Shown here in pieces: positions 27,641 to 58,136 of a stretch of DNA of 64,000 nt (the first letter of the stretch is position 1; each line of letters begins with the position of its first letter). A model generated the notes under the pieces. It had not been told where the DNA came from. It worked only from the letters and a program-made list of their open reading frames with translations, and did not search any database. This stretch comes from a phage, in NCBI GenBank assembly GCA_017676145.1, contig GCA_017676145.1_3628.1. One strand, 5' to 3'. The position numbers and the translations under genes were made by a program.

Positions 27641-27750
27641 TTTATAGCATCCTTATTAGTCATGTTGTGCACCATATTTGTGTATTTTACCATGATTATG
27701 GTGCATTGTCAATTTAACCTTTCAAGCAATTCAAGAACGTGTGTCAAAAC

Positions 27751-31198: not shown

Positions 31199-31239
31199 TA
31201 ATGTATTTTACCACAAAGATACATCAAAAGCAACAATTT

Positions 31240-39214: not shown

Positions 39215-39536
39215 ATTTAATGGTTGCGCCTATAAACGAGAATGACAACGGTCTTGGCTTAATCTCCACACCTAGTCCGTTAACCGTGGTGTATTTCTCT
39301 ATTAACTCCTCTTTAGAGTCTCCCCAGATAAATTCACCGTCGCGCCGGATAAAATATCTTTTCTTACCACATTTCTCCGGATCTGGATACCCTTCATCGT
39401 CCAACCACCACCTAACCAGTTTGGCAAGCATGTGTTCTGAGTCGGGGTTACAGCTGATAACCATTCTTGATGGATACTTTGACTGAGATCGCAGACGAGA
39501 CATTAGATAGTCTATCTGCTCCCATTCGAATTGCGT
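39215..39536 (-). CDS. terL: terminase large subunit, exon 2
   Basis: frame open from 39539 to the stop at 39213-39215; translation TQFEWEQIDYLMSRLRS...VISCNPD...IGATIK; boundaries approximate. Confidence 0.55.
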
Positions 39537-39855
39537 CGTTTATGTTCAGGCAAGGTCGCTAGTCTTGCCCCGCCATTTTCAGGCAGCTGCATGTCTCCAT
39601 GCAGACCAGACTATATCTTATAAGCTATAACAACAGCTTACCCTCCCGTTTCGAATCGCTTGATTCTACGTCTTTCGACTAGTCGTTGAACGTTCATCCT
39701 CTCGGATGCTTCGCTGCGGATTATCTAAATCAACACTCTGTTACCATACCTTCGATCTCTCTTCGAAGCCTCTATTATGTTACCATAACAGGTTGGTGGT
39801 GTTAATAATAAAGATTTCCCCGCAATTAGGGAGGTTTTACGAGAGCTACAAATTA
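39537..39855 (-). mobile_element. group I intron (no ORF)
   Basis: minus-strand P AATTGCGGGGAAATC (39813-39827), Q TAATCCGCAGCGAAGC (39708-39723), R GTTCAACGACTAGTCG (39676-39691), S AAGATATAGTCTGG (39606-39619) in canonical order; candidate guide sequence GCTCTC pairs with exon end GAGGGU; stops in all frames. Confidence 0.7.
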
Positions 39856-40281
39856 ACCCTCATCGAAGCAAACCATGGTGTACTCAAGCCCTTGATGGTT
39901 AAGCTTATCTTGGACATACTCCATGTGGCAGTATTTTACAACGGCCCCTTTTTTGCTCCTGTCCCACTTGCCAGTGCTCGGATCAAACCGTGGAAAAATA
40001 AACTTATGATCCTTCTCTCTGAACTTTGGTTTAATGTTTTCAGGCAGATCACTGTAAATAGCTACTGCTTTAGGCCATAGACCTCCTTCACCCTCCAGCT
40101 GCGGGGTTGTTCTTCGGAACATAACCACAGAGCTGTGTGGGTCATCAATAATTTTAAGTGGCATTAGCTGCAAGAGGAACGACTTGCCAGAACCGGCTGC
40201 ACCTCCGATCACCAAAATATCTGCATCGTTCTCAAGGATCATCTTCTGCTTTTCAGAACACGGTCCGTAAATCTTAGACAT
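39856..40281 (-). CDS. terL: terminase large subunit, exon 1 (ATPase N-terminus)
   Basis: Walker A GGAAGSGKS and Walker B MVCFDE in translation; ORF ends at a stop that lies inside the intron. Confidence 0.75.
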
Positions 40282-40568
40282 TAACCTCTCTCCTTTGGAA
40301 ACAGTGTTCTTATATAGTCTTGCAAAATGATCAATTTAGCTCTATCATTACTACAAGACAGGTTATTATCCCTCATAATGCCAGAATTCACCGCATCTGG
40401 CGCACCTTTCTTCAAAGGGATAGCTTTAGCAGGTGGTTTCATAGCACCCTCGGGAGGTTTAACAATCAACCTTCCTACATCCGGAGGGTCAATCTTATAT
40501 TCTTTTTCGACACTTGTCGCACATCCGCACAGCAGTAAGCAAGCAACTAACAATACGGTGGCTCTCAT
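40281..40568 (-). CDS. o-spanin (Rz1-like outer-membrane lipoprotein)
   Basis: 95 aa; signal peptide with LLCGC lipobox; proline-rich body; overlaps i-spanin gene. Confidence 0.65.
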   Translation of the reverse strand: MRATVLLVACLLLCGCATSVEKEYKIDPPDVGRLIVKPPEGAMKPPAKAIPLKKGAPDAVNSGIMRDNNLSCSNDRAKLIILQDYIRTLFPKERG

Positions 40569-40963
40569 CTACCCTCCTGATTAATGCTCTCGTTATAGAT
40601 ATCTATAAGCTGGTCAGGTAGTGTTGACTTCTTACCTTCAGGTGATTGGAGGTAGATAATCTGCTTTTCTTTACCTGCCTTCTCAGCCATATTTAATTTA
40701 TCCTGTAAGTCAGAAAGAGATTTTTCAAGGTTTTTAACCTCCTCTGCGTGGCCCATTTTAATTTTGTCGGCCTGCTTTTGTTGTTGGTCAAGGATCCGTT
40801 CCCACTTTAACTCTGTTGCTGACACACCTTCCTGATAAGCATCATTGAGCTTAGAGTTAAACCAATACACGGCCCCAAGATAAGTCATGCCTATAGCCGC
40901 TGCAAAAACTAAACCTTTTATGATCCCTCTGTATTTACTCATCAATGTTAAAACTGAAATCAT
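40565..40963 (-). CDS. i-spanin (Rz-like)
   Basis: 132 aa; N-terminal transmembrane helix then coiled-coil periplasmic domain; 4 nt overlap with o-spanin. Confidence 0.65.
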   Translation of the reverse strand: MISVLTLMSKYRGIIKGLVFAAAIGMTYLGAVYWFNSKLNDAYQEGVSATELKWERILDQQQKQADKIKMGHAEEVKNLEKSLSDLQDKLNMAEKAGKEKQIIYLQSPEGKKSTLPDQLIDIYNESINQEGR

Positions 40964-40985
40964 TTTAAGGCTCCAGAAACGAAAA

Positions 40986-41012
40986 AACCCCGCAGCTATG
41001 CAGCTAACGGGG
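40986..41012 (-). terminator. hairpin terminator
   Basis: CCCCG...CGGGG stem with run of A on plus (U-run on minus) downstream of 41069-41338. Confidence 0.4.
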
Positions 41013-41068
41013 CGGGTTAAAATTGAGTAACCTAAATAGATCGAAACTAACTAAAAGGAGACTAATAC

Positions 41069-41338
41069 TTATCGAGGCACTCGGTGGATGATTCTGACAG
41101 TAACTGCATTCTCATTCATCAAGTATGCATCCACATCTCTGTAAATATAAAACTTCTGCTCGCTATCAACAACACAAGCCACTGCCCCTTCAGAGTTGTC
41201 TTCAAAGAAGACCACAACTGCATCGCAGCTTAGTTCATGATACGACTCTCGAAGATTTACAGCAAGAGGGTTGAAATCGTCACGAAAATCTACAGTATGG
41301 GTTGGATTTACACGTTCTACAATTTTAAGTGTATACAT
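41069..41338 (-). CDS. hypothetical protein
   Basis: 89 aa ORF. Confidence 0.3.
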   Translation of the reverse strand: MYTLKIVERVNPTHTVDFRDDFNPLAVNLRESYHELSCDAVVVFFEDNSEGAVACVVDSEQKFYIYRDVDAYLMNENAVTVRIIHRVPR

Positions 41339-41384
41339 TTTAAAGGTTCCTTTTGTGTGTATATATTTAAAGTATAACTAAAGG

Positions 41385-41461
41385 TGGTCTCCACGGAGTG
41401 ATTCGAACACTCGACCTCCTGATCCCAAATCAGGCGCTCTACCAAGCTGAGCTACGCGGAG
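41385..41461 (-). tRNA. tRNA-Pro (anticodon UGG)
   Basis: hand-folded cloverleaf: acceptor CTCCGCG/CGTGGAG, anticodon loop TTTGGGA, T-loop TTCGAAT, 3' CCA encoded. Confidence 0.7.
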
Positions 41462-41472
41462 TATTTATAATT

Positions 41473-41547
41473 TGGTGGCCCTGGGTGGAATTGAACCACC
41501 GTCTGGCGATTATGAGTCGCTTGCTTGAACCTTCCAGCTACAGGGCC
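41473..41547 (-). tRNA. tRNA-Met (anticodon CAU; could be Ile2 if lysidinylated)
   Basis: acceptor GGCCCTG/CAGGGCC, anticodon loop CTCATAA, T-arm GGTGG-TTCAATT-CCACC, CCA encoded. Confidence 0.65.
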
Positions 41548-41548
41548 A

Positions 41549-41624
41549 TGGTGCTGATGGCAGGACTTGAACCTGCAACCTATTGATTACAAATCAATTG
41601 CACTACCGATTGTGCTACATCAGC
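41549..41624 (-). tRNA. tRNA-Thr (anticodon UGU)
   Basis: acceptor GCTGATG/CATCAGC, anticodon arm ATTGA-TTTGTAA-TCAAT, T-loop TTCAAGT, CCA encoded. Confidence 0.7.
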
Positions 41625-41629
41625 AAAAA

Positions 41630-41728
41630 GGTGCTAGGTGATGGAATCGAACCACCTATGTATTCAACGACTACCTCGTCTATTTTCAGGATTAAAAATC
41701 CTCGCCCTTGCCAAAGGGCTTACCTAGC
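41630..41728 (-). tRNA. atypical tRNA-like gene, anticodon UUU (Lys) candidate, with about 30 nt variable region
   Basis: perfect 7 bp acceptor GCTAGGT/ACCTAGC, D-arm GCCC-TTTGGCAA-GGGC, anticodon arm GAGGA-TTTTTAA-TCCTG, T-arm GGTGG-TTCGATT-CCATC; extra hairpin GACGA-GGTAG-TCGTT in variable region. Confidence 0.45.
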
Positions 41729-41826
41729 GCAATATGTTGACCATGTGGCTAGTCGGCGATGACGACTGTAACATTTGATAATCCGGTTCTGCTTCCGGCT
41801 TTCGCTTAATTACAAGGTCAACAATG

Positions 41827-41917
41827 TGGCGGAGAGTAATGGAATCGAACCATCATCGAGTCATCCTCAACGGGACGGTTTTCAAGACCGCTTGAGCACC
41901 ATTGCTCCCTACCCTCC
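41827..41917 (-). tRNA. tRNA-Ser (anticodon UGA), long variable arm
   Basis: acceptor GGAGGGT/ACTCTCC, anticodon arm GCGGT-CTTGAAA-ACCGT, T-loop TTCGATT, CCA encoded. Confidence 0.65.
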
Positions 41918-42031
41918 TTTATAAATTACACTGATAATGACACTGATTTTCGAGCAGTTAGTGACTAGTATAAACGACGATAAATATCAATGCCATTATC
42001 TGTATGATTTATGCATTTAAAAATATAAATT

Positions 42032-42119
42032 TGGTGGTGAGTGATGGAGTCGAACCACCCGAATCGCAATGATAACAGATTTACAGTCTGCCCCGCTACC
42101 CCTACGGAATTAACTCACC
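42032..42119 (-). tRNA. tRNA-Tyr (anticodon GUA), long variable arm
   Basis: acceptor GGTGAGT/ACTCACC, anticodon arm GCAGA-CTGTAAA-TCTGT, T-loop TTCGACT, CCA encoded. Confidence 0.65.
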
Positions 42120-42249
42120 TAAATACTAATATTTAAATTCTTTTTAAAATAGCTAGTGTTCTCACCACTAACTATGAGGTATCGGTAAAGTGGTTACCGC
42201 CACTTGCCGAAGATTTACTCTGCTAAAGTAAGCTACATTAAAAAGAACT

Positions 42250-42324
42250 TGGCACCCCGTACTGGACTCGAACCAGTGTCAACGGCTTAGAAGGCCGCTG
42301 CTTTATCCACTAAGCTAACAGGGC
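42250..42324 (-). tRNA. tRNA-Arg (anticodon UCU)
   Basis: acceptor GCCCTGT/ACGGGGT (two G-U pairs), D-arm GCTT-AGTGGATA-AAGC, anticodon loop CTTCTAA, T-loop TTCGAGT, CCA encoded. Confidence 0.65.
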
Positions 42325-42420
42325 ACTGGGTGGCTTTCTTTTACACCTGAGCCGCCAGAAAAGGTGGGAGACCATGTTTACAATATTACACTGTTAAGCA
42401 AAGTTTGTCAAGAAAATATT

Positions 42421-42759
42421 TTAACTATTGCCAACAGGCTGTATCTCTGTGGTAAATGGCATAAAAGGTGCTGGTTTTTCAGCCTCTTCTACTACCACCT
42501 CTTCCTCTTCACCAAACATCTCATCATATTCTTCCTGCATTCGGTCTGCCTTATCAAGGACATACTCTGCAATGCTTTGACGAATATTTTGCTTGGTTTT
42601 CGGATCCAACATCAGCTCTCTTAAAACTTTGTGAGCTTCTGGAACCATCGCTATAAAAGATTCCTTCATATCAAGAATGTTCTTCTCTAGCTGAATGGCG
42701 TTGGACTCCTCTTTCAGAGGTCTGCCTCTACGGCGACGCTTTTTAGTTGTATCCGCCAT
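42421..42759 (-). CDS. small DNA-binding protein with AT-hook-like motif
   Basis: start at internal ATG 42759 with GGAGGAAAC Shine-Dalgarno; KKRRRRGRPLKE basic motif; acidic C-terminus. Confidence 0.4.
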   Translation of the reverse strand: MADTTKKRRRRGRPLKEESNAIQLEKNILDMKESFIAMVPEAHKVLRELMLDPKTKQNIRQSIAEYVLDKADRMQEEYDEMFGEEEEVVVEEAEKPAPFMPFTTEIQPVGNS

Positions 42760-42770
42760 GTTTCCTCCAT

Positions 42771-42800
42771 TATCACGTGATAGGTGGATTTTATCACGGC
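42771..42800. promoter_or_regulatory. operator-like palindrome TATCACGTGATA plus TATCACGGC half-site
   Basis: 12 bp perfect palindrome at 42771-42782 and a repeat of the TATCAC half-site at 42792-42800, just upstream of 42421-42759. Confidence 0.25.
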
Positions 42801-43104
42801 AAATACTGATTGTCAAGTTCGCCGCAGGGTGGTATTCCCTGCGACTTGCCCAGCGTCCTGGACCAGAAAGACCCAACAAGTGGGTTACCAGAGACCCATT
42901 ACCGCGCTTTGGCTCGACCTTATTACAGGTTGGCTGGGGTCACATCGTCATGTGCTGGCTGCCCCTACCATTTTAAGTGTGGTGCACTATCAAGCCCTCT
43001 AAGGGGAACTCAGCATTCTCCGAACCCTGTTTCAAAGCATCCGGAGATAAAGCCATCAAACTCATCTTTAAATTGGATATTCATCATGATACACGAAAAC
43101 AACC

Positions 43105-43347
43105 TCATTGTAAAGCACAAATAAATAAAACATACTTAATTTGTTTGTTATCGGGCTCAGGGTAGAAGTAGAAGATCTTGCTATCACCAATCTGAACACC
43201 ACCATCCCAACAACATAAACCATAACCCGTATTCATACAAGCTAAGTCGTTGGCAAAATCTATTGCATCATCTAGTGCACGAAATTCACCTTCATCTTCT
43301 AAATAATCCTCATTCATGGAACGGAAAACGAGCTTAACCTTAAACAT
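43105..43347 (-). CDS. hypothetical protein
   Basis: 80 aa ORF. Confidence 0.3.
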   Translation of the reverse strand: MFKVKLVFRSMNEDYLEDEGEFRALDDAIDFANDLACMNTGYGLCCWDGGVQIGDSKIFYFYPEPDNKQIKYVLFICALQ

Positions 43348-43423
43348 AGCATTACCTGTAGACCTCGTAAGTTAAAATTGTATCACATCATATTGCAGAT
43401 CTTATCAGGTAACATTATTTTTG

Positions 43424-43612
43424 TCAACAGATTCCGGCCTTATCCCTCCTGTCTGCGTATTCTTTAATCGCAACCTCACCTGCATTGGTAACCAGATCTT
43501 CAAAGTAATTCTCAAGCTCCTCGTCAATGTCCGGTGACCAGCTCTTTTTCCTGTCAGTGTGAATTGCAGACTTGTTGAACTTATTACAGTTCTTTGCTAC
43601 CGGATTGTTCAT
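43424..43612 (-). CDS. hypothetical protein
   Basis: 62 aa ORF. Confidence 0.25.
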   Translation of the reverse strand: MNNPVAKNCNKFNKSAIHTDRKKSWSPDIDEELENYFEDLVTNAGEVAIKEYADRRDKAGIC

Positions 43613-43622
43613 TAAGCTCTCC

Positions 43623-44201
43623 TCAACGTTCGTAGTAAATCTTATTCAACATTACCTCATCGTTTGCAGAAAGGATATCAAGATATGCATCACCAAATCT
43701 GCCTGCAACAACCTCTGCATGATACATCACTTCGTCAACATCGTCAAGAGTGATAACCGGATGACCATATCTTTCTGAATATTGCCTCAGGGTGCGATGT
43801 AACGAGTCGTCATCATATGCAGACTTTTTAATATCACAAACACGACGAATGGCCTTGATGTCGAAAAAACCTGTGCGATACCACCCAAGAAAAAAGTTCC
43901 GTGTGGTGTCAACATCTACATCAATACCATCAAGAACTTTATCTACAAGATAGCTGTCATCCTTTGGACCAGCGTCCTTAGTGCGAATGTAGTTGCCATC
44001 TTTTCCAGGCGATAGCTCCTTCTCATCACCAACCTGCATGCCATCATTTGGCGGTGTTAGCCACTTATCCGGATGCTTACGATCACGAGCGTTAGAATGA
44101 TTACGCTGGAAACCTGGCTTCCACTTGAAAGTTTTCTCCATCTGTTCTTCATTCTGATAACGTTTTGCAATCTTTTCGCGGTCATCTTTGCGTGAACTCA
44201 T
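43623..44201 (-). CDS. hypothetical protein
   Basis: 192 aa ORF with GAGGAGG Shine-Dalgarno upstream of ATG at 44201. Confidence 0.4.
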   Translation of the reverse strand: MSSRKDDREKIAKRYQNEEQMEKTFKWKPGFQRNHSNARDRKHPDKWLTPPNDGMQVGDEKELSPGKDGNYIRTKDAGPKDDSYLVDKVLDGIDVDVDTTRNFFLGWYRTGFFDIKAIRRVCDIKKSAYDDDSLHRTLRQYSERYGHPVITLDDVDEVMYHAEVVAGRFGDAYLDILSANDEVMLNKIYYER

Positions 44202-44706
44202 AACTGCCTCCTCTTCAAGTTATAGAAAAACTCACTGTATCGCTTTGTAACGAGCTTTTCTATCAAACTGGTGCGATTGCCTTACTTGGTATAGTTTACG
44301 CAGCTGTGTGGCGATTTAGGGGCCTTCCTGTCCGTTTCCACACATAAACTTTAACTAAACTCGCGCGGGAGGCTCTCAACCGACTCCTTACGGCGCTGGC
44401 AAGCTTTCGTCGGTGGTCCACATTAGTGCTCGGCCTTTGGCCTGCGCTATCGCTTCGCTCCCACACATGTTAACAGTCCTGCATGTATGCACTCCTGTCA
44501 TTGTGTGCACTATGGAGGCCCGGCATCTCGCCCCTCGTAGGCGAGTGCCAATGAAGGGCCGACACTACCAATAGTAAGTAATAAATTTAAAACATGGTAC
44601 TTAGGATCTAGTATATTCTACATAAGTTAAGTATATGTACTTTAGTACCATAAGTACTAGATCTTTTATTTTTTATTATTTAGTTATTTTAGTTATATTC
44701 TTTATG

Positions 44707-44787
44707 TGTCCGTATTGCGGACAGTTAGTGTCCGTATTACGGGCAGATGTGTCCGCGTGACGGACAGTAGTGTCCGTATCACGGACA
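44707..44787. repeat. iteron array: four 17 bp dyad-symmetric repeats at 21-22 bp spacing (origin or operator candidate)
   Basis: TGTCCGTATTGCGGACA (44707-44723), TGTCCGTATTACGGGCA (44729-44745), TGTCCGCGTGACGGACA (44750-44766), TGTCCGTATCACGGACA (44771-44787); adjacent AT-rich tract 44600-44700. Confidence 0.6.
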
Positions 44788-44862
44788 GTTACTACCCTCT
44801 GCTCTTGGATGGACATAAAACATACGAATCCTTATAGTGCAGATATTTAAGTTTTCACTGGT

Positions 44863-45213
44863 CTAACCAGTTGTTGACATTCGAATAACCTCTTCTGGTG
44901 GCAAAACTTTGGAAAATGTGCATCTTTTACCTCTCCCTTGTGTGGATATTTCAACCACTCCTGCACATTCTAAAGTTTTAACGCACGCTGCTGCTTTTGT
45001 TTTCTTTATCCCAACATCTGCTGCAATTTTCCTTGTGCTGGGTGTGAAGCGTGAATTTCCTCCAAGCTTATACCAGTTGTGCAGGTAGCAGTATACGATC
45101 TTGTCATACAAGTCAAGAACAACAACCTCCCCGGTTGTGTCATTCAAAACTTTTGACATAGACAGTATTTCAAGGGGGACTTTAAGATATAGCAGCTTAT
45201 CCCCATCTTTCAT
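44863..45213 (-). CDS. helix-turn-helix DNA-binding protein (candidate iteron-binding or replication initiator)
   Basis: 116 aa; PSTRKIAADVGIKKTKAAACVKTLECAGVVE has helix-turn-helix character; gene ends about 75 bp from the iteron array. Confidence 0.4.
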   Translation of the reverse strand: MKDGDKLLYLKVPLEILSMSKVLNDTTGEVVVLDLYDKIVYCYLHNWYKLGGNSRFTPSTRKIAADVGIKKTKAAACVKTLECAGVVEISTQGRGKRCTFSKVLPPEEVIRMSTTG

Positions 45214-45260
45214 ATCTCCTGATTCTCCTTGTGTGGCAATTTTCTTTAAAATAGCAGGGA

Positions 45261-45815
45261 TTACTCCCCGCTGTCAATAGCAAGACTCATTGCAATACGG
45301 TATGCCTCTTCTAATGGTAAGAGTCTCCCCCACACATCCCAACCGACATCAAACTGCCTGCCAAACAACTGTTGCGTGGTTCCGTGAGCATGACCGAACA
45401 GTTGGACTGATCCGTGATGCTTTCTGTTCCACGTTGCAAACTGGTAATGACTCATACAGATCAAATTCTTGTTGTGGCGAAACTCGTAATAATCTACAAC
45501 CTCATGATAGAACTCTTTCATAATTCTGACAGTCGTCCTTGTGTCATGGTTGCCACGAACAAGAATAATATGTCCGTTCAACATATTTAGAATATCTGGA
45601 AGTAAGTTGTTGATATTCTTATCATTAGTGCACGCAATATCCCCCAAGTGGAACACAGTGTCTGCAGGTGACACAACAGAGTTCCACTCGGTGATGATTC
45701 CAGCATTCATACTGTCAAGATTGTGATCATACTGAGATCTGTGTTTTTGACACGAGTCAAACTCCATGACCCGCTGGTGGAGAAAGTGTGTGTCACTTGT
45801 TACAAAGTATTTCAT
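45261..45815 (-). CDS. calcineurin-like metallophosphoesterase (candidate RNA 3' end-healing phosphatase)
   Basis: start at internal ATG 45815 with GAGGAA Shine-Dalgarno; motifs SDTHF, LGDIACTND, RGNHD, GHAH. Confidence 0.6.
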   Translation of the reverse strand: MKYFVTSDTHFLHQRVMEFDSCQKHRSQYDHNLDSMNAGIITEWNSVVSPADTVFHLGDIACTNDKNINNLLPDILNMLNGHIILVRGNHDTRTTVRIMKEFYHEVVDYYEFRHNKNLICMSHYQFATWNRKHHGSVQLFGHAHGTTQQLFGRQFDVGWDVWGRLLPLEEAYRIAMSLAIDSGE

Positions 45816-45822
45816 ACATTCC

Positions 45823-46233
45823 TCATTTAAGTTTAATGCAGTTTTTAAGCTGGCGTTCCATACGATCCACGACCATGTCTGGAACATCATGAATGCTTTT
45901 ATTACCGTGGCGGTTTTCAACCACGATTACGGTATAACTATACCCATGACTGATTGCCATGTCAACATATTCTTGCACATGTTTTTCTTTTGTAAACGTA
46001 TTACTTACCACGATACGGTCGTATCCCATACGCATCATATCTTCTACGTTATCTTTGCACCATTTTGCTGCAAGTGTTACTTTACTTGCATCCCAGTTGT
46101 AATTGCCGTCATCGTCGTACCAGAACATGTCGTTCTCAAAATGTGGATACAGACCTTCTAAAGATAGCGCATTTGCCAGTGTTGATTTGCCAGACCCTGG
46201 TAGACCACGCACGATATATAGCATTTTAGACAT
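45823..46233 (-). CDS. polynucleotide 5'-kinase (T4 Pnk kinase-domain-like)
   Basis: start at internal ATG 46233 with GGAGG Shine-Dalgarno; P-loop GLPGSGKST; IVVSNTFTK and VPDMVVDRMERQL parallel T4 Pnk kinase motifs. Confidence 0.7.
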   Translation of the reverse strand: MSKMLYIVRGLPGSGKSTLANALSLEGLYPHFENDMFWYDDDGNYNWDASKVTLAAKWCKDNVEDMMRMGYDRIVVSNTFTKEKHVQEYVDMAISHGYSYTVIVVENRHGNKSIHDVPDMVVDRMERQLKNCIKLK

Positions 46234-46351
46234 AGCGGCCCTCCGTTTTAATTTTAATGATAGTATAGCGTGCTCTTTTGAACATTTCAAGTGTTGACAT
46301 GATGCTGTTTGTGTGGGAAGATTGTGGAACAAAATGACAAATGAGGAACGT

Positions 46352-47269
46352 ATGATGAAGTATTTTAATGCAGACGACCTAGTTGACAAAGGTCTTGTAA
46401 CCAGCAGATATTACCCAGATCTTGGATTAAAGATCTATAAATATGCCAGAAAAGTATTTTACAACAATTTATGGCATTTGTCTCCTCGTTTGCTGGAGTG
46501 CCGGGGAATTGTTGTCGGTAATGAAGGAAATGTTGTGGCATGGCCCTTCACAAAAGTGTTTAACTTGGGAGAAAACTCCACCAACCTGCCTGACAATAAG
46601 CTTGTGACGGCGGTAGAGAAAAAGAACGGATTCCTTGGTGTGGTATCATCTCATAAAGGTGAACTATTGTTCTCAACAACCGGATCTCTTGATTCTCCAT
46701 ATTGTAACCTCGCAAAGGAAACCATCCAGGAGCAATGTGGTAATTTAGATCTTATCAAGAAGGTTATGGGCAAAGAAAACATGACATTCATGTTTGAAAT
46801 TTGTCACCCTTCAGATCCGCATATTGTTCAGGAAGATCATGGCGCATATTTGATAGGCTGCAGATATAATGATTCTGGAATAATGCTACCAGAAGCAGCT
46901 TTAGATGGGATTGCCAAACACCTTGGTGCAAAACGTCCTCACACTGTGCGTGAAATTCCGTTCAGCTATGCAAAAGAATTAGCTGCAGAAACAAGAGGTG
47001 AAGGGTATATGATTCGTAAGCCTTACTACCCTTATGACCTGCAGCTGAAGATCAAGTCTCCATACTATCTGGCACGGAAGGCCGTAATGAGGGGTAAGGC
47101 TTGGAAGATTTGGGATGATGATATCTTTAAACGTATTGACGAAGAGTTTTACGGCATGGTAAACTTCATTCGTAGCAATTACACAGAGGATGTGTGGAAC
47201 TGCCTCCTGGAGCAGGAACGCCGTGAGATACTTGATTGCTATTTCCACAACGAGGACTATATGCAATGA
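46352..47269 (+). CDS. RNA ligase (Rnl2-like nucleotidyltransferase)
   Basis: motif I-like EKKNG, motif IV-like EGYMIRKP, motif V-like KIKSPYY; start chosen at ATG 46352 after GAGGAA. Confidence 0.55.
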   Translation: MMKYFNADDLVDKGLVTSRYYPDLGLKIYKYARKVFYNNLWHLSPRLLECRGIVVGNEGNVVAWPFTKVFNLGENSTNLPDNKLVTAVEKKNGFLGVVSSHKGELLFSTTGSLDSPYCNLAKETIQEQCGNLDLIKKVMGKENMTFMFEICHPSDPHIVQEDHGAYLIGCRYNDSGIMLPEAALDGIAKHLGAKRPHTVREIPFSYAKELAAETRGEGYMIRKPYYPYDLQLKIKSPYYLARKAVMRGKAWKIWDDDIFKRIDEEFYGMVNFIRSNYTEDVWNCLLEQERREILDCYFHNEDYMQ

Positions 47270-47616
47270 AGAAGTTGATTGTGTGGCTTGATGATTTTAG
47301 AGATCCGTCAGATTATGGACTCCCAGACGCTCTGTGGCTAAAGAATTCTTCTGAGTTTATGGATTTCATCGATGACAAGGGAAAGCTATATAGACGCGTT
47401 TCTGAGTGGCATTTTGACAGCGACTTGGGAGAAATTTTTGAAGGATACGATTGCTTCTGCATACTAGAGGAAAAATTTGTATTTGGTAAGCCTCCTGTAG
47501 TTGACAACGTGAAGATTTTCGTGCATACTTCTAACCCATCAGCGGCTCGTAAATTCATGCTTGCTGCTGACTCGTTTAAAAAGTTTGGAATAGAGATTAA
47601 ACAAAACATCTACTGA
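47266..47616 (+). CDS. hypothetical protein, adjacent partner of SIR2 gene
   Basis: 116 aa from ATG overlapping upstream stop (ATGA); begins MKKLIVWLDDFRDPSD; single HTS motif; no family recognised. Confidence 0.4.
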   Translation: MKKLIVWLDDFRDPSDYGLPDALWLKNSSEFMDFIDDKGKLYRRVSEWHFDSDLGEIFEGYDCFCILEEKFVFGKPPVVDNVKIFVHTSNPSAARKFMLAADSFKKFGIEIKQNIY

Positions 47617-47624
47617 GGACACTT

Positions 47625-48386
47625 ATGCGACGACTGATCATTATCTCCGGCGCTGGTTTGAGCGCTGAATCTGGTATCCCAACTTTCCGATCTGGTTGCA
47701 CTGCAATGTGGGAGAATTTCAGCATCGATGAGGTGTGTAACATCCACACCTTTGCCAAGAACTACTATAAGGTGCATGACTTTTACAATGCACGGCGTGT
47801 AGCTCTGGGCAGTGTTGATCCTAACATTGCACATCTCCGGATCGCTGAGTGGTATTCCCGCTGGTCTGGTCGTGTGATCAACCTGACCACCAATGTAGAT
47901 GATTTGCTGGAGCGTGCTGGTGTAAAACATGAAGATATTTTACATGTCCACGGATATTTGCCAGAAATAGTCTATGAGGATGATGAAGGGAGTGACGTCA
48001 TTAAAGACATTGGATACTCTGAGGTAGATGCAAGCGAGTATACTTGGGTCAAGCCTAATGTGGTGTTCTTCGGAGAAGTAGCTCCGAAGTATACAGACAT
48101 GTATGACCTGTTGACTTCTCTTACGAGTAATGATATGGTTATCCTTGTAGGGTGTTCCAACACAGTTATCAATTTTAACTGGGAGCTATTCCCTGCCTGC
48201 AATAAGGGAACCAAACTGCTGATCGTTAACAAATACGACTCACAGCAGCTAGGGGAGAATGGTATTTCACGTAGTGATATTTACCAATATGAGGATCGCG
48301 GCATCCCAGTTTGGTTTAACGGGGCGGTTGATGCTTTCTCTGATAAAACATTCATTGAGACCGTAGAAAACTTTATGGAACTTTAA
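47625..48386 (+). CDS. SIR2-family NAD-dependent protein (sirtuin-like)
   Basis: GAGLSAESGIPTFRSG Rossmann motif and HVHG catalytic His motif; 253 aa. Confidence 0.7.
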   Translation: MRRLIIISGAGLSAESGIPTFRSGCTAMWENFSIDEVCNIHTFAKNYYKVHDFYNARRVALGSVDPNIAHLRIAEWYSRWSGRVINLTTNVDDLLERAGVKHEDILHVHGYLPEIVYEDDEGSDVIKDIGYSEVDASEYTWVKPNVVFFGEVAPKYTDMYDLLTSLTSNDMVILVGCSNTVINFNWELFPACNKGTKLLIVNKYDSQQLGENGISRSDIYQYEDRGIPVWFNGAVDAFSDKTFIETVENFMEL

Positions 48387-48399
48387 AAGGAGACCTTTA

Positions 48400-49113
48400 A
48401 TGCTGAATACCAAATTAATTGACAACCTGGAAAAACTGTCCCAACCTGAAAACTACCTTTGGTCTGCCAACTGGGTGGAAAACTGGAACCGTGTGGCAGC
48501 TAAAGTGAAAAAATCATACACACCATTCGAATTACAGCTTAGCTTCATTGAGGAAGAGTTCAATGAAGTTTTGGAAGAGCTGGAGAAAGGTGATGGCGGA
48601 GATCACCTGCTAAAAGAGGCCTGCGATCTTCACGTTGTCACAAGTTATGCCGCTTATCTTGTTAATGATAATCACGAAAAGTGGTCAAACCTGTTTGATA
48701 ATCCACAGGGTCTTAAGTTCAAGATCGGTGAGTTCTATGATACACTGATCGCTGCGAAAAACACCTCTAAGCAAAAAGCGTCCGCTTACCGCTTAGCAGA
48801 GTTGTCAACAGCTTTGCTGTTCCAGCTTCGCGGCGATGTGTGCGGGATGATGCGTAAGGTTCTCAAATCGAATGACAGCAAGTTTGCACGAGTCAACCAT
48901 CTACGGTATTCACACGGTGCCAGTGCAGATATGCCTGCTGAACAACTCATCGAGTTGGAGATTAAAGATCTTGAGCGACGCTTTGATGGTCGATATGAAG
49001 GTTTTGTTGCTAAGGAAGAATTCTACAACGGAAATAAAGTTATCATATTCCTCGACAGTAAAGGTAAGATTATGAAGCCTTCAAGCTTCAAGGATGTAAC
49101 AGAATATATTTAA
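48400..49113 (+). CDS. MazG-like nucleotide pyrophosphohydrolase
   Basis: EEEFNEVLEELEKGD and LLKEACDL acidic helix motifs. Confidence 0.45.
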   Translation: MLNTKLIDNLEKLSQPENYLWSANWVENWNRVAAKVKKSYTPFELQLSFIEEEFNEVLEELEKGDGGDHLLKEACDLHVVTSYAAYLVNDNHEKWSNLFDNPQGLKFKIGEFYDTLIAAKNTSKQKASAYRLAELSTALLFQLRGDVCGMMRKVLKSNDSKFARVNHLRYSHGASADMPAEQLIELEIKDLERRFDGRYEGFVAKEEFYNGNKVIIFLDSKGKIMKPSSFKDVTEYI

Positions 49114-49119
49114 CAACAT

Positions 49120-49147
49120 AGCCGGGGCGATCCCGGCTTTACTTGTT
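49120..49147 (+). terminator. rho-independent terminator
   Basis: GCCGGG-GCGAT-CCCGGC hairpin followed by TTTACTTGTTT. Confidence 0.5.
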
Positions 49148-49177
49148 TCGGAAAGTATGCAAGTGAGGTAGAAAGTT

Positions 49178-49486
49178 ATGTACAAGCACTCCAGAGACCT
49201 TGAAAACGATGCTGTGTTTGGAGATCAGATGAAAGAATTGGTTAAACTTATAGGTAGGATAGAGGATAAGTTTGACACTAAGATCTACATCGACAGCAAA
49301 GTATTCAACCACAAAATATGGACAAATCTGTGTGTTGGACTACATGGAGATAAGGATGTGGTAAATTTAGTTGTAATTAAGTTCATAGTGTGGCAGAATA
49401 GAACCATAAGTTATTACGATCCGCACCTACTTGTTTACCCGATAAAAGATCTATTAGAGAAGGAGGACTGCAATGCCGTTATTTAA
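49178..49486 (+). CDS. hypothetical protein
   Basis: 102 aa ORF. Confidence 0.3.
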   Translation: MYKHSRDLENDAVFGDQMKELVKLIGRIEDKFDTKIYIDSKVFNHKIWTNLCVGLHGDKDVVNLVVIKFIVWQNRTISYYDPHLLVYPIKDLLEKEDCNAVI

Positions 49487-49742
49487 TCTTGCTAAACCTG
49501 TAGAAGCACACCAGTTTGATGGAAGCTCTTCATCAGTATCTGATCTGCAACGGTGGATTGATACAGGTGTGTTTACATCGTCACCTGTTCGAACCAGAGA
49601 TATTCTTCGCATGTGTGAGCTTGTCGAGCCGTTTGGTAACCTTGTCTTGTACCAAGGGGATTGGTTAGTTGACTTTATGGGAGACTGGTTGGTAATGAGC
49701 AAAGAAGAGATGTTTAAAATTTTTAAGGAAGAGGCTGAGTAA
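49473..49742 (+). CDS. hypothetical protein
   Basis: 89 aa ORF, overlaps neighbours. Confidence 0.3.
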   Translation: MPLFNLAKPVEAHQFDGSSSSVSDLQRWIDTGVFTSSPVRTRDILRMCELVEPFGNLVLYQGDWLVDFMGDWLVMSKEEMFKIFKEEAE

Positions 49743-51025
49743 TGCATCAGATCAAAACAACACTGTACGCACTGAACAAAGATGGCAGCTACCAACAGTG
49801 GAAAGTATTCACGGATGGTGATAAGGTTATCGTAGAGTTTGGCAAGCTTGATGGTAAACTGCAATACAAAGAGACGATCTGCACACCTAAGAACGTTGGT
49901 CGTGCCAATGAAACTACAGCTGAGCAACAGGCTGAGCTGGAAGCGATCAGTAAGTGGGAAAAACAAGTCCGTCTGGGGTATGTTGAAAATATGGAAGATT
50001 GCGAGCAGGGTGTTGACCTTTTACCCATGCTGGTGCATGACTACCTGAAGCGTGGAAAGGCACTTAAATTACCTTGCTGGATCTTGCGTAAGTTAGATGG
50101 CCTTCGTCTACTTGTTGTTTTCCAAAATGGTGAGCCTAAATTTATTTCCCGTGGTAATAAGTCCTACCCTATTCAAGGAAAGCTTCTGGAGCAACTTCGT
50201 TCTTTCCACTTCACCACCGGGATTAAACAGCTCGACGGAGAGATCTATATTCATGGCCTGCCTCTGCAGAAAATAGTGTCTCTTGCTAAACGGTGGCGCA
50301 CACAGGAAGAGATTCAGGCCGAGATCGATAAAGACTACGAGGCAGATAAAAAACGCCGTCATGCCGCAATTAAGGCAGGCTTATCAACATACAAAAACTT
50401 CAACAAGGTAGATATTCCTGTTGATGTTGAGCCTGTTCGTGATGATTTGCGTTACGGTGGGTACTGTAGCTACGATCTAGAGTATCACATTTTTGATATT
50501 CCTAGTGACAAGGTGTGGTGGGATCCAGAAACAGAATCTGGACGCTGCAAGGATCTTATGGATGTAGAAGATACCATTACCACTCTGATGCTTGACCATA
50601 TCAAGGTTGTTGACGCAGAGCTTGCGTACACAGTTGATCATTGCGAAGAATCTGTCGGTGTATTCATGTCCGAAGGGTATGAAGGTACTATCATGCGTAA
50701 CTTCTGTGGTAAATACGAATACGGTCAGCGAACATCTGAAGCATTGAAATGGAAAAAGTTCAACGATGCTGAGGTGAAAGTTATTGACGTTGAGAAAGAT
50801 AAGAATGATGAAGGTGTTCTTATCTGTGTTGACAAGGAAGGTATTGTTGTTAAAATGAAGATGAAAGGTACGCACGAGGAGCGTAGCTATGACAGGATGC
50901 AGGAAATGATCGGCAAGTTTGTCACCTTCAAATATCAAGCAAGGACAGAAGACAACAACTACCAATTCCCTGTCGGTATCTGCGTCCGAAATGTTAACCC
51001 AGACACTTGGGAGGTGCTGGAATAA
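49742..51025 (+). CDS. ATP-dependent DNA ligase
   Basis: motif I KLDGLR, motif III LDGEIYIHG, motif V-like LKWKKF. Confidence 0.65.
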   Translation: MHQIKTTLYALNKDGSYQQWKVFTDGDKVIVEFGKLDGKLQYKETICTPKNVGRANETTAEQQAELEAISKWEKQVRLGYVENMEDCEQGVDLLPMLVHDYLKRGKALKLPCWILRKLDGLRLLVVFQNGEPKFISRGNKSYPIQGKLLEQLRSFHFTTGIKQLDGEIYIHGLPLQKIVSLAKRWRTQEEIQAEIDKDYEADKKRRHAAIKAGLSTYKNFNKVDIPVDVEPVRDDLRYGGYCSYDLEYHIFDIPSDKVWWDPETESGRCKDLMDVEDTITTLMLDHIKVVDAELAYTVDHCEESVGVFMSEGYEGTIMRNFCGKYEYGQRTSEALKWKKFNDAEVKVIDVEKDKNDEGVLICVDKEGIVVKMKMKGTHEERSYDRMQEMIGKFVTFKYQARTEDNNYQFPVGICVRNVNPDTWEVLE

Positions 51026-51166
51026 TTTAGGTATGTTTAGTAGATAACGGTAGCCAATTGAATGAGTGTTTTCAATTGGCACCTACATATGCCCTGATGT
51101 ATGCACTGTGCAACCTAGCCACGTGCTGATCAGGGCTCGTTATGAGTGAACTGGAGAGTATGAAAA

Positions 51167-51637
51167 ATGAAACTTGATAAAAATGTTCAACGAAAAGCTT
51201 TCTTGGATATGATCGCATATTCAGAAGGTACAGATAATGGTAGACAACCTACCAAGGATCGGGGCTACGATGTCATAGTCGGGGGCAAGCTGTTTAGCGA
51301 TTACAGTAAGCATCCAGGTGTTTACGTTAAACTAAATGCTAAACTTACCTCCTCTGCTGCTGGGCGTTACCAGATTCTGGAGAAGTTTGCTAAACACTAT
51401 ATGAAACAGTTAGGATTACCAGATTTTGGCCCTACCAGTCAGGACAAGATTGCGTTGCAACTGATCCGTGAGTGTAAGGCGCTCGATGATATTGATGAAG
51501 GTCGTATTCACCAGGCCATCCATCTTTGCAGATCCCGATGGGCAAGCCTTCCAGGTGCAGGGTACGGTCAGCACGAACAGAAGATCGAAAAGTTGATCGA
51601 GGTGTTTAAAAAGTCAGGCGGCGTTGTCCTGGATTAA
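51167..51637 (+). CDS. endolysin, lambda R-like lytic transglycosylase
   Basis: RKAFLDMIAYSEGTDNGRQ, GYDVIVGG, AAGRYQIL, WASLPGAGYGQ blocks closely parallel lambda R (recalled from memory). Confidence 0.85.
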   Translation: MKLDKNVQRKAFLDMIAYSEGTDNGRQPTKDRGYDVIVGGKLFSDYSKHPGVYVKLNAKLTSSAAGRYQILEKFAKHYMKQLGLPDFGPTSQDKIALQLIRECKALDDIDEGRIHQAIHLCRSRWASLPGAGYGQHEQKIEKLIEVFKKSGGVVLD

Positions 51638-51640
51638 TCA

Positions 51641-51669
51641 TTGACATAACCATACGGATGTGGTATTGT
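51641..51669 (+). promoter_or_regulatory. sigma70-like promoter candidate
   Basis: TTGACA (51641-51646), 17 nt spacer, TATTGT (51664-51669). Confidence 0.3.
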
Positions 51670-51700
51670 TGCCTCATAGAATGTTCAGGAGGGTTTAACC

Positions 51701-51907
51701 ATGAAAGATTTTCTGTTGGCAATTTTGTTCATGGCAGCATGCCTTGTCTGTGGTGTCGTGTTTGCAGGTGAGACAGCGTACCTTGTAGATGTATATCGGG
51801 ACAATGGTAAACGTATTTGCCTTTATGAGACAAGCCAAGGTGAGCTATATGAGCTTGTGAAACAAGGTGAGGCAGGTTCCTGCCCTCGCACCCATTTCTT
51901 TGAATGA
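51701..51907 (+). CDS. small membrane protein next to endolysin (holin candidate)
   Basis: 68 aa; N-terminal hydrophobic segment FLLAILFMAACLVCGVVFAG; no classical lipobox. Confidence 0.3.
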   Translation: MKDFLLAILFMAACLVCGVVFAGETAYLVDVYRDNGKRICLYETSQGELYELVKQGEAGSCPRTHFFE

Positions 51908-51916
51908 GGAGGATAC

Positions 51917-52381
51917 GTGGAAGACGGACGTTTAATGAAGTCTGAACGCAGGCTTATTGTGCAACTGATCCCAGAAACAGCTTGGTATAATAACCTCCGA
52001 AACGCTGTGAAGAAGAGTGAGTGGGATAAGATCCGTAAGAAGTGCTACAGAGAAGCCAACTACACTTGCGAGGTGTGTGGTGGCAAAGGTAGCAAACACC
52101 CTGTGGAGTGTCATGAACTTTACACCTTCGAAGAGGGGGTGATCCGGCTTGTCGGACTGATAGCCCTGTGCCCAGATTGTCACACATCGGTGCATCCTGG
52201 GTTAGCAAATATCCGTGGGAAATATGCTCAGGCAGTTAATCAGTTGGCTAAGGTAAATAAGATCACTAAGGGCATGGCTGAAGCTTATTACCGAGACTGC
52301 TTTGCAGAGTGGCGGGAGCTTAGTAAAGTTCCGGAATGGAAGACCGACTTTTCGTGGATAGAGGGTTACCTTGATGGCTAA
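51917..52381 (+). CDS. zinc-finger protein, possible HNH-type nuclease
   Basis: CEVCGG...ECHELYT...CPDCHTSVH cysteine/histidine pattern. Confidence 0.35.
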   Translation: MEDGRLMKSERRLIVQLIPETAWYNNLRNAVKKSEWDKIRKKCYREANYTCEVCGGKGSKHPVECHELYTFEEGVIRLVGLIALCPDCHTSVHPGLANIRGKYAQAVNQLAKVNKITKGMAEAYYRDCFAEWRELSKVPEWKTDFSWIEGYLDG

Positions 52382-52664
52382 GAAACCTGTAAAAGAAAAA
52401 TTTGATAAGACAGCTTTTGTATTCGATACACCTCTGGACGACATTATTAGAGGTATGCAATCATTGTACCGGAAGGCTGAATCTGATCAGTTGTCTGAAT
52501 CAGAACTTTACTGGCTTGGTTGGTGGGAGCTAAACCTTCCTAAAGCTGAAAGTTCTTGTCTGAGAACTGTTAAAACGTGCGCCCAAGAAAACGCTGCACT
52601 TGGAATCTACCACAAAAGGAAAAGATCAACAAAAAGCTCTCCAAGGAAGACTAAAAAGTCTTGA
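52371..52664 (+). CDS. hypothetical protein with basic C-terminus
   Basis: 97 aa ORF. Confidence 0.3.
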   Translation: MMAKKPVKEKFDKTAFVFDTPLDDIIRGMQSLYRKAESDQLSESELYWLGWWELNLPKAESSCLRTVKTCAQENAALGIYHKRKRSTKSSPRKTKKS

Positions 52665-58121: not shown

Positions 58122-58136
58122 TAACGTGCAGTATGA

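Follow-up and report, generated by a model that had tools for sequence, protein, structure and literature searches.

The locus analysed here raises two questions: how the lysis genes of this phage are arranged, and whether the small gene that follows its endolysin gene encodes the holin. The window, that is, the whole stretch of 64,000 nucleotides, very probably carries the standard rV5/FV3 lysis set distributed over separate transcription units; the holin is probably not the 68-aa ORF (rather an exported mini-protein), and its likeliest candidate is ORF129, beyond the window.

Source phage and distribution of the lysis genes

The whole 64-kb window was compared with many Vequintavirus genomes and showed 94-96.6% DNA identity to them, with approximately 96% to FV3, SYGMH1, and NHEP1. 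On this sequence identity, the source phage is an rV5/FV3-type E. coli phage (Vequintavirus). The group to which it belongs also encodes rIIA and rIIB homologues and a tail lysozyme.

Every ORF named in an earlier, sequence-only reading of this DNA was present where that reading had placed it. Its proposal that the lysis functions are dispersed was borne out, because the spanin genes on the minus strand and the endolysin gene on the plus strand are 10.2 kb apart. This scattered layout is already published for rV5/FV3-type phages (Kropinski 2013; Kongari 2018; LL12 announcement; Buttimer 2020); it is ordinary and resembles that of T4. In the published description, the spanin genes adjoin TerL and are not part of a lysis cassette, and the genes for the rV5 lysin (gp89) and the putative holin (gp129) are said to be "separated as in T4". 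The spanins and endolysin of such phages are already annotated in public records. The arrangement itself is thus of little consequence, since it is textbook for large virulent myoviruses and already published for this group. A motif search found no late-promoter-like motif upstream of the spanin genes, the endolysin gene, or the 68-aa ORF.

The spanin pair is coupled to the terminase gene

The features of the spanin region are as follows.

40565-40963, minus strand: i-spanin, 132 aa, with an N-terminal TMD (approximately residues 14-36) and then a charged C-terminal domain, presumed periplasmic
40281-40568, minus strand: o-spanin, 95 aa, with a lipoprotein signal that contains a lipobox-like L13-C14-G15/C16 (the slash marks the predicted cleavage point, here and below) and has Ala in the +2 position; the mature part is rich in proline
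39856-40281, minus strand: TerL exon 1, whose start codon overlaps the o-spanin stop codon (TAATG)
39219-39536 and 37436-38239, minus strand: further TerL exons, delimited as tblastn blocks
40990-41003, minus strand: terminator-like GC hairpin with a T-run, located approximately 20 nt 5' of the i-spanin ATG

The 132-aa protein matched PHROG 4297, "Rz-like spanin", over residues 1-130 of the 130-position profile (E = 2.8e-48). Its TMD has a mean hydrophobicity of 1.81, and the predicted topology places a charged domain of approximately 95 residues after it. In FV3, NHEP1, and AlexBoehm, the protein carries the annotation i-spanin or Rz-like spanin, and it is included in the rV5 i-spanin family (Kongari 2018). 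The 95-aa protein matched PHROG 1267, likewise "Rz-like spanin" (E = 4.3e-22). Its lipobox region, read directly from the sequence, is MRATVLLVACLLLCG/C16-A17, and the lack of Asp at +2 is consistent with outer-membrane sorting; nine of the 80 mature residues are proline. The i-spanin TMD, the lipobox and proline-rich part of the o-spanin, and the adjacency of the two genes on the same strand are those of a two-component spanin system, and on these sequence features the two genes are an i-spanin/o-spanin pair. The pair and its location upstream of the terminase gene, as previously proposed, were confirmed, whereas the proposed overlap amounts only to a 4-nt ATGA stop/start junction at 40565-40568. 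The rV5 spanin genes have been assigned to the "separated" architecture class (Kongari 2018).

Using the intronless FV3 TerL as a tblastn query yielded three blocks of 99-100% identity; TerL has been reported in three segments for rV5, and an intron has been reported for LL12. The ATGA and TAATG junctions show directly that the spanin genes are coupled in translation, both with one another and with TerL. No promoter-like site was found between the hairpin and the i-spanin ATG. In this reading, the spanin genes stand at the head of the late operon of packaging and structural genes, in translational coupling with the large terminase gene; when infection ends, the spanins would connect the two membranes of the cell and break down the outer one.

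The endolysin requires a holin

Two features were identified around the endolysin gene.

51167-51637, plus strand: endolysin, 156 aa, a lambda R-type lytic transglycosylase (PHROG 90; PDB 1AM7/3D3D)
51053-51080, plus strand: perfect 10-bp inverted repeat inside the 142-nt gap upstream of the endolysin gene

The proposal that 51167-51637 encodes a lambda R-like endolysin was upheld by matches to PHROG 90, "endolysin" (E = 6e-55), and to lambda lysozyme 1AM7, with residues 4-154 aligned to 3-153 (E = 2.2e-56); the match to 3D3D was of similar strength (E of approximately 2e-56). The catalytic Glu motif SEGTD aligns with WSEGTD of lambda. On this alignment, the protein is a full-length lambda R homologue. 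The region 51026-51190 gave a folding z-score of -3.2.

The endolysin N-terminus, MKLDKNVQRKAFLD, is hydrophilic, and scans of the protein revealed no signal peptide, SAR domain, or TM segment. Because it lacks an export signal, the endolysin stays in the cytoplasm and needs a holin to reach the cell wall. The soluble transglycosylase would be supplied from a DNA-metabolism gene region, on the other strand and 10 kb from the spanin genes, and a holin hole would give it access to the wall.

The 68-aa ORF next to the endolysin gene is probably not the holin

The sequence-only reading had suggested that a 68-aa single-helix membrane protein encoded after the endolysin gene may be the holin. The relevant features are as follows.

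51701-51907, plus strand: 68-aa ORF, with a predicted Sec signal peptide at residues 1-22 (VFA/GE) and a 46-residue two-cysteine beta domain
51641-51669, plus strand: near-consensus sigma-70 promoter (TTGACA, 17 nt, TG-n-TATTGT, an extended -10) serving the 68-aa ORF

The suggested hydrophobic N-terminal segment is present. The N-terminus of the window's copy is very hydrophobic (19-residue Kyte-Doolittle mean of 2.86), enough to span a membrane, and with so long a core this copy could stay anchored and uncleaved. The protein is small, public records label it "putative membrane protein", and the ORF lies immediately 3' of the endolysin gene throughout Vequintavirus and in relatives 61-75% identical, an adjacency that hints at some link to lysis. 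The helix might thus remain in the inner membrane, oligomerise, and release the adjacent endolysin in the manner of a one-TMD holin. We regard this as highly improbable, since the family as a whole points elsewhere. In the alignment of homologues, only 3 of the 22 N-terminal positions are invariant, compared with 31 of the remaining 46, so that the hydrophobic segment, the part a holin would be expected to conserve, is the least conserved region of the protein. Across the family, the 19-residue mean falls from 2.86 to 1.23, and the segment is replaced in homologues by short, weakly hydrophobic, signal-peptide-like sequences with A-x-A-type ends. The C-terminal part is a predicted conserved beta domain of approximately 45 residues with two invariant cysteines, not the charged hydrophilic tail of a holin, and the protein matched no holin family in PHROG or Pfam. 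Moreover, a near-consensus sigma-70 promoter of its own precedes the gene, not a late-promoter motif, and the homologue in Serratia phage ChuuTotoro is not beside the endolysin gene. The holin assignment is therefore not supported by the sequence comparisons and the structural model, and a holin role is unlikely.

The N-termini fit Sec signal peptides instead: K2 is invariant in the family, and the basic n-region and hydrophobic h-region of such peptides are present, as are small residues in the -3 and -1 positions. By inspection against the -3/-1 rule, the predicted sites in 15 homologues are VFA/G, TFA/G, VRS/G, AWS/G, AWA/G, ASA/S, AQA/S, AEA/A, AEA/S, ARA/T, and SYA/G; with flanking residues they include SAWA/GD, KASA/SQ, and AQA/SQ. 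All five remote homologues examined, and the Serratia phage homologue, have signal peptides with A-x-A-type sites. The h-region of the window's copy is unusually long at 19 residues.

The AlphaFold model, a prediction, comprises a helix at residues 2-17 and four strands, with block-mean pLDDT values of 81-94 over residues 21-68. The protein matched PHROG 4641, of unknown function, and no Pfam family. A word-index search and a HMMER profile search of 1.84 billion proteins retrieved only small uncharacterised phage proteins as family members; spurious repeat matches in large proteins were also obtained. With Foldseek, the best PDB match of the model was not significant (E = 0.02), and all BFVD matches were uncharacterised.

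The promoter corresponds to "P090" in Table S4 of the rV5 paper. It is kept directly upstream of the 68-aa ORF in FV3 despite an HNH gene inserted there, and it occupies the same position in divergent relatives. Because the gene has its own host-type promoter, it is probably expressed early. The P0010 protein (61% identical) was considered as a paralogous second copy and rejected; it is the orthologue of a sister lineage, in the same position after the endolysin gene.

Three results obtained directly, namely how conservation is distributed along the protein, the promoter, and the predicted fold, together suggest that the 68-aa ORF most likely encodes a small Sec-exported periplasmic protein of approximately 45 residues, and that the mature protein is probably disulfide-bonded. 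From them we infer cleavage of the signal peptide, location in the periplasm, and early timing.

Such a protein could be a periplasmic lysis regulator or superinfection-exclusion factor, by analogy with the T4 antiholin RI or T4 Spackle, the latter of which blocks incoming tail lysozyme. This role would explain the position beside the endolysin gene, and it accords with the predicted export, the compact two-cysteine domain, the host-type promoter suggestive of early expression, and the rIIA/rIIB homologues and tail lysozyme of the phage group. Nevertheless, the protein resembles neither RI nor Spackle, nor any other characterised protein, in sequence or fold, and the linkage to the endolysin gene is lost in ChuuTotoro; we consider the analogy unlikely to hold. 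It is similarly a tentative, low-probability idea that the ORF may found an undescribed family of tiny, early, Sec-exported, disulfide-bonded proteins whose targets in the periplasm would be the lysis machinery or incoming phage. If so, the protein could bind the transglycosylase, a tail lysozyme, or the holin from its periplasmic side, and so affect lysis timing or block superinfection, as a functional analogue of RI or Spackle with an unrelated fold.

Candidates for the holin within and beyond the window

The holin was not recognisable by homology and would probably not be the 68-aa ORF. None of 14 small membrane or lysis candidates, drawn from the window and a complete relative genome, matched a holin family in PHROG or Pfam. 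When the entire window, including intergenic gaps down to 22 aa, was scanned for additional small membrane ORFs, no credible candidate emerged beyond the following genes of the fibre module.

1761-2075, minus strand: 104-aa protein, rV5 gp31, with an N-terminal TMD, basic residues, and a charged, helical or coiled-coil-like C-terminal domain
351-617, minus strand: 88-aa protein, rV5 gp29; its two conserved helices are weakly hydrophobic, its RWG motif is invariant, and its acidic tail varies
1701-1710, minus strand: late-promoter-like motif TGTTAAAATA that precedes the short fibre gene and the 88-aa ORF

Both had been listed as small membrane proteins in the sequence-only reading. This description holds for the 104-aa protein, which has a TMD; the 88-aa protein is just weakly hydrophobic, with no segment above the TM thresholds. 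The entry for gp31 in Table S3 of the rV5 paper likewise reads "membrane protein, 1 TMD", and TMHMM and Phobius gave no TMD for gp29, the rV5 homologue of the 88-aa protein. The 104-aa protein belongs to PHROG 5345, of unknown function, and was found in 224 phage records across Vequintavirinae. The 88-aa protein matched PHROG 1322, "membrane protein" (E = 2.7e-32), and occurred in 369 phage records, including Stephanstirmvirinae, always within the fibre cluster. The motif at 1701-1710 corresponds to the putative late promoter P030 of the rV5 paper.

In T4, gene t, which encodes the holin, immediately follows tail-fibre genes 37 and 38. A parallel arrangement, with the 104-aa or the 88-aa protein as the holin, would agree with the small size of both proteins, with their place in a late structural operon near late-promoter-like motifs, and with their constant position across genera with differing endolysins. 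The 104-aa protein moreover combines a clear N-terminal TMD, adjoining basic residues, and a very charged C-terminal domain, and neither protein is flagged "MS evidence" in the rV5 gene table. However, neither matched a holin family, and the C-terminal tail of the 88-aa protein, itself below the TM thresholds, has a net acidic character in each of the four genera compared. The strict synteny with fibre and fibre-assembly genes equally fits a role in fibre assembly or superinfection exclusion, and some records call these proteins structural or tail proteins. A holin in the fibre module therefore appears doubtful, although with an appreciable chance. The two genes are conserved late genes and the fallback holin candidates inside the window, and the 104-aa protein is a possible holin or lysis factor. 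Separately, the two were examined as a coupled pair in Phapecoctavirus, and this was rejected on account of the poor alignment (20% identity, with many gaps) between the 104-aa protein and the product of the upstream gene in that genus.

The sequence-only reading had named a canonical holin outside the window as evidence that would tell against it. What was found goes halfway: a published, class-II-like candidate, ORF129, is absent from the window and lies approximately 10 kb beyond its right edge. In rV5, ORF129 (78 aa, two TMDs) is the published putative holin (Kropinski 2013), and a TM scan of a complete relative genome independently recovered a 78-aa protein with two TMDs that was identified as ORF129. 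Both TMDs are strong and the C-terminal tail is K/R-rich; the loop between the TMDs is RRR.K, and no holin family was matched. By the positive-inside rule, this loop would place the charged tail outside the cell, opposite to the N-in/C-in topology of class II holins. ORF129 is surrounded by small early-type ORFs. Published accounts differ: the authors of LL12 and Gotham named no holin, and the BASEL annotators picked a different ORF. We infer that an ORF129-type protein, outside the window, is the likeliest candidate for the holin.

ORF128, labelled "putative glycosidase" in BASEL, was considered together with ORF129 as a second endolysin-holin cassette. The label was unsupported; ORF128 matched no Pfam family, its PHROG is of unknown function, and its best PDB match had an E-value of approximately 1.

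Phages of the rV5 type are common components of biocontrol and phage-therapy cocktails and have no experimentally confirmed holin, and three publications either disagree on it or give up. The present analysis removes one tempting candidate, the ORF adjoining the endolysin gene, and leaves a directly testable shortlist: ORF129-like and bas56_0110-like proteins and the 104-aa and 88-aa fibre-module proteins.

Comparison with known systems

The layout resembles that of T4 (e, t, pseT.3/pseT.2, rI, sp), another large virulent myovirus, in that separate transcription units hold the genes for endolysin, spanins, and (presumably) holin, the spanin architecture is "separated", and the group of the source phage has rIIA/rIIB homologues. 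It differs in that homologues of the T holin, RI, and Sp were not found, the endolysin is a lambda R-type transglycosylase rather than a T4 E-type lysozyme, and the spanin genes are fused to the terminase operon.

As in lambda Rz/Rz1, the spanins are an inner-membrane protein with an N-terminal TMD and a small proline-rich outer-membrane lipoprotein encoded by adjacent genes. Unlike the lambda genes, those of the source phage are separated, with a 4-nt junction, rather than embedded, and there is no detectable sequence similarity beyond the PHROG family level. The i-spanin has no cysteine, and apart from the lipidated residue, the mature o-spanin has a single cysteine; the disulfide pattern must therefore differ from that of lambda. 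The endolysin resembles lambda R (1AM7, 3D3D) over its full length (E of approximately 2e-56) and in its catalytic Glu motif, its size, and its lack of an export signal, but its gene lies outside any S-R-Rz cassette; it has DNA ligase and HNH genes as neighbours and is preceded by a structured leader of 142 nt.

ORF129 shares with class II holins, such as S21 of phage 21, its small size (78 aa), two TMDs, and a Lys/Arg-rich C-terminus. It departs from them in its strongly basic loop (RRR.K), for which the opposite topology is predicted, in its distance from the endolysin gene, and in the lack of a family match.

Compared with FV3, the window has two TerL introns, as do rV5 and LL12, whereas FV3 TerL is intronless, and it lacks the HNH gene that separates the endolysin gene from the 68-aa ORF in FV3. 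Otherwise, the window carries the same genes as rV5/FV3, in the same order and on the same strands, with 94-97% identical DNA in the region: i-spanin (gp67) and o-spanin (gp66) genes immediately upstream of TerL, the lysin gene (gp89) after the DNA ligase gene, and then the 68-aa "putative membrane protein".

Genomic context of the lysis genes

The region 40000-52500 of the window matched many Escherichia phages of the genus Vequintavirus (SYGMH1, NHEP1, FV3, and other rV5-like phages) over its full length at 94-96.6% identity, and the fibre region (1-2700) was up to 99.4% identical to that of relatives. Structural and packaging genes occupy the minus strand from 1 to approximately 46 kb, near which the GC skew changes sign, and DNA-metabolism genes occupy the plus strand beyond. 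All ORFs named in the sequence-only reading were recovered at the same positions. The dispersal of lysis functions that it described is real. It was already in the literature, and large virulent myoviruses typically have such an arrangement. Public records label these genes 'Rz-like spanin' (twice) or 'i-spanin' and 'o-spanin', together with 'endolysin' and 'putative membrane protein'. The rV5 genome paper named gp89 as the lysin, and Buttimer et al. reported that the spanin pair of CB7, rV5, and PVP-SE1 adjoins the large terminase gene, outside any lysis cassette (PMC7344957). The dispersed arrangement had thus been established by these annotations and papers. The holin is the exception: the Gotham announcement (PMC7471380), like that of LL12, does not name it.

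Spanin pair and large terminase gene

The spanin genes lie on the minus strand, immediately upstream of the large terminase gene (TerL).

Spanin genes
40565-40963, minus strand: i-spanin, 132 aa; PHROG 4297 'Rz-like spanin', E = 2.8e-48 over the entire profile; one N-terminal transmembrane domain (TMD)
40281-40568, minus strand: o-spanin, 95 aa; PHROG 1267 'Rz-like spanin', E = 4.3e-22

At its N-terminus, the o-spanin reads MRATVLLVACLLLCG and then CA, which marks a lipoprotein signal (Ala at position +2), and prolines are abundant in the mature part. The two profile matches, the TMD, and the lipoprotein signal confirmed the assignment of the pair. The genes do overlap, as had been claimed, but by only 4 nt, because the i-spanin stop and the o-spanin start meet in ATGA; Kongari et al. 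classed the rV5 and FV3 spanins under the 'separated' architecture. The o-spanin stop and the TerL start meet in TAATG, and through these two junctions i-spanin, o-spanin, and TerL are translationally coupled. A terminator-like GC hairpin with a T-run (40990-41003, minus strand) lies approximately 20 nt 5' of the i-spanin start codon, and no recognisable promoter was found between the two. Transcription of the spanin-TerL operon must thus rely either on read-through or on a promoter that escaped recognition.

The TerL gene (37436-40281, minus strand) comprises three exons (40281-39856, 39536-39219, and 38239-37436), unlike that of FV3, which is uninterrupted; a split TerL gene was previously reported for rV5 and LL12. 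Intron 1 (approximately 320 nt) contains no ORF, and intron 2 (approximately 979 nt) carries a 231-aa HNH homing endonuclease ORF (38404-39099). A tRNA cluster (Pro, Met, Thr, Ser, and Arg) is located at 41385-42324 on the minus strand and includes a 99-nt tRNA-like gene (41630-41728) to which ARAGORN assigns a four-base anticodon. This stretch is variable, and relatives carry other annotated tRNAs (Tyr, Lys).

Endolysin and its expression

51167-51637, plus strand: endolysin, 156 aa; end-to-end alignment with the lysozyme of phage lambda (PDB 1AM7 and 3D3D; E approximately 2e-56)

This alignment and the conserved catalytic SEGTD motif bore out the assignment as a lambda R-like endolysin. The N-terminus is hydrophilic, and the enzyme is predicted from its sequence to be soluble, cytoplasmic, and holin-dependent. 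Between the DNA ligase and endolysin genes is a 142-nt gap (51026-51166, plus strand) with unusually strong predicted folding (-47.8 kcal/mol; z-score, -3.2); within it lies a hairpin with a perfect 10-bp stem (51053-51080; GCCAATTGAA...TTCAATTGGC), behind which there is no T-run. Endolysin expression could be regulated, or its transcript processed, through this leader structure.

The late-promoter-like motif TGGTAAAATA occurred 20 times in the window against 6.2 expected, a count that no shuffle reached, and almost all sites precede minus-strand structural genes.

Examples of the late-promoter-like motif
1701-1710, minus strand
8033-8042, minus strand
13544-13553, minus strand
27683-27692, minus strand
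31204-31213, minus strand

In the scan of the window, neither the spanin genes nor the endolysin gene nor the 68-aa ORF that follows the endolysin had such a motif just 5' of it. Given this lack, the hairpin before the i-spanin, and the structured endolysin leader, the sequence gives no plain indication of the mode or timing of spanin and endolysin transcription.

Beyond the window, the complete relative AlexBoehm has a gene for a second muralytic enzyme (57749-58249; 7749-8249 in our extract L004). This 166-aa SleB-like cell-wall hydrolase (PF07486, E = 2e-19) has an N-terminal Sec signal peptide, and its gene lies immediately 5' of rIIA/rIIB homologues.

The 68-aa ORF: an improbable holin

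51701-51907, plus strand: 68-aa ORF with one strongly hydrophobic N-terminal segment
51641-51669, plus strand: near-consensus sigma-70 promoter with an extended -10 (TTGACA, 17 nt, TG-n-TATTGT), in the gap that separates the 68-aa ORF from the endolysin stop codon

The only novel element of the sequence-only reading was the proposal that this ORF encodes the holin. As a caveat to what follows, the window copy has an h-region of sufficient length to serve as a membrane anchor. The family has few members (11 clusters among 5.8 billion database proteins; 124 phage records), and its alignment revealed that positions 1-22 are invariant only at M1, K2, and L5 and that 31 of the 46 positions after residue 22 are invariant, including C40 and C61. 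With predicted cleavage marked by a slash, the N-terminus reads MKDFLLAILFMAACLVCGVVFA/GE in the window copy, MKTLWAVFISAMMFASGSAWS/GD and ...SAWA/GD in relatives, and ...AAGKASA/SQ in the homologue of Serratia phage ChuuTotoro; those of remote homologues from a full HMMER profile search end in ...AQA/SQ, ...AEA/A, ...AEA/S, ...ARA/T, and ...SYA/G. Every one satisfies the -3/-1 rule for signal peptidase I, and judged by sequence the N-termini are interchangeable and signal-peptide-like. The 19-residue mean hydrophobicity ranged from 2.86 (window copy) down to 1.23 (P0010, a 61%-identical orthologue from a sister lineage), the low end falling within or below the range of reference signal peptides and SAR sequences (OmpA, 1.84; T4 Sp, 1.66; T4 RI, 1.75; P1 Lyz, 2.07). 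AlphaFold predicted a helix (residues 2-17) and a four-stranded beta domain (block-mean pLDDT 81-94 over residues 21-68), for which a Foldseek search returned no characterised relative.

The promoter corresponds to 'P090' of the rV5 paper. In FV3, it remains with the 68-aa ORF (15224-15252 of the FV3 stretch L001) despite an intervening HNH gene insertion, and relatives 61-75% identical have an equally good, sequence-divergent promoter at the same place (e.g., 3945-3973 of L006). This retention therefore suggests that the 68-aa ORF is an independent unit read by host RNA polymerase. In ChuuTotoro, the homologous gene is located 3' of a terminator and adjoins no endolysin gene.

The variable N-terminus, its signal-peptide character, the hydrophobicity, the beta domain, and the separate promoter argue against a holin; the proposal is probably wrong, and we consider it very improbable that this ORF is the holin. 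The conserved export signal and two-Cys domain, the host-type promoter, and the lack of a charged tail would be expected of a small secreted periplasmic protein rather than of a pore former.

HNH endonuclease genes cluster near the endolysin and 68-aa genes: directly 3' of the 68-aa ORF in the window (51917-52381, plus strand), additionally between the two genes in FV3 (L001, 14534-15217), and 5' of the endolysin gene in some metagenomic relatives. The neighbourhood looks like a homing endonuclease insertion hotspot.

Candidate holins

A systematic scan of the whole window, which in the intergenic gaps took in ORFs as short as 22 aa, identified no further credible membrane protein, and the earlier list of in-window membrane candidates was thus complete. 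This list included two small proteins of the fibre module. In the 104-aa protein (1761-2075, minus strand; rV5 gp31 homologue), an N-terminal TMD is followed by a basic juxtamembrane stretch and a charged C-terminal domain, and the description of this protein as a membrane protein stands. That of the 88-aa protein is less secure: its two conserved helices are weakly hydrophobic, and TMHMM and Phobius gave no TMD for its homologue, rV5 gp29. It also has an acidic tail, an invariant RWG motif, and invariant aromatic residues. Both genes are conserved in the late operon, within the fibre module, throughout Vequintavirinae. The 88-aa protein (PHROG 1322) is 35-53% identical across Vequintavirinae genera and Stephanstirmvirinae, always within the tail-fibre cluster.

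Loci of the 88-aa protein
351-617, minus strand: window
3001-3264: relative's fibre locus L011
2989-3258: relative's fibre locus L012
3001-3243: relative's fibre locus L013

In phage T4, the holin gene t is located after genes 37 and 38. By this analogy, one of the two fibre-module proteins may be the holin; however, their position would be just as consistent with proteins that act in fibre assembly or exclusion, and we regard this identity as unlikely.

In a TM scan of AlexBoehm (135 kb), a 78-aa protein stood out independently; it carries two strong TMDs, its tail reads YYKNIRKEKKEGRDGDRT, and it is ORF129, the published rV5 candidate. It is absent from the window (best tblastn E-value, 2.6) and is expected approximately 10 kb past its right end by synteny with FV3. 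All 116 phage records are from Vequintavirus, and the protein diverges fast (FV3 copy, 54.5% identical). ORF129 is not a clean holin: no family match was found, the inter-TMD loop (RRR.K) would by the positive-inside rule place the charged tail outside the cell, and the surroundings are a block of small, early-type ORFs. Nothing was found in support of the 'glycosidase' label of its 5' neighbour, ORF128. Near ORF129 lies rV5 gp133 (AlexBoehm 101836-102291; L005, 1836-2291), reported as an abundant virion protein, with a predicted C-terminal transmembrane helix. The 'putative holin' of the BASEL annotators is another ORF, bas56_0110 (123 aa, two TMDs).

As a rough ranking, an ORF129-like protein is a possible but doubtful holin and heads the named candidates, followed by the fibre-module proteins; a bas56_0110-like protein, likewise outside the window, is improbable, and the remaining probability falls to something else. 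The 68-aa protein may possibly act in lysis timing or superinfection exclusion, by analogy with RI and Sp of T4.
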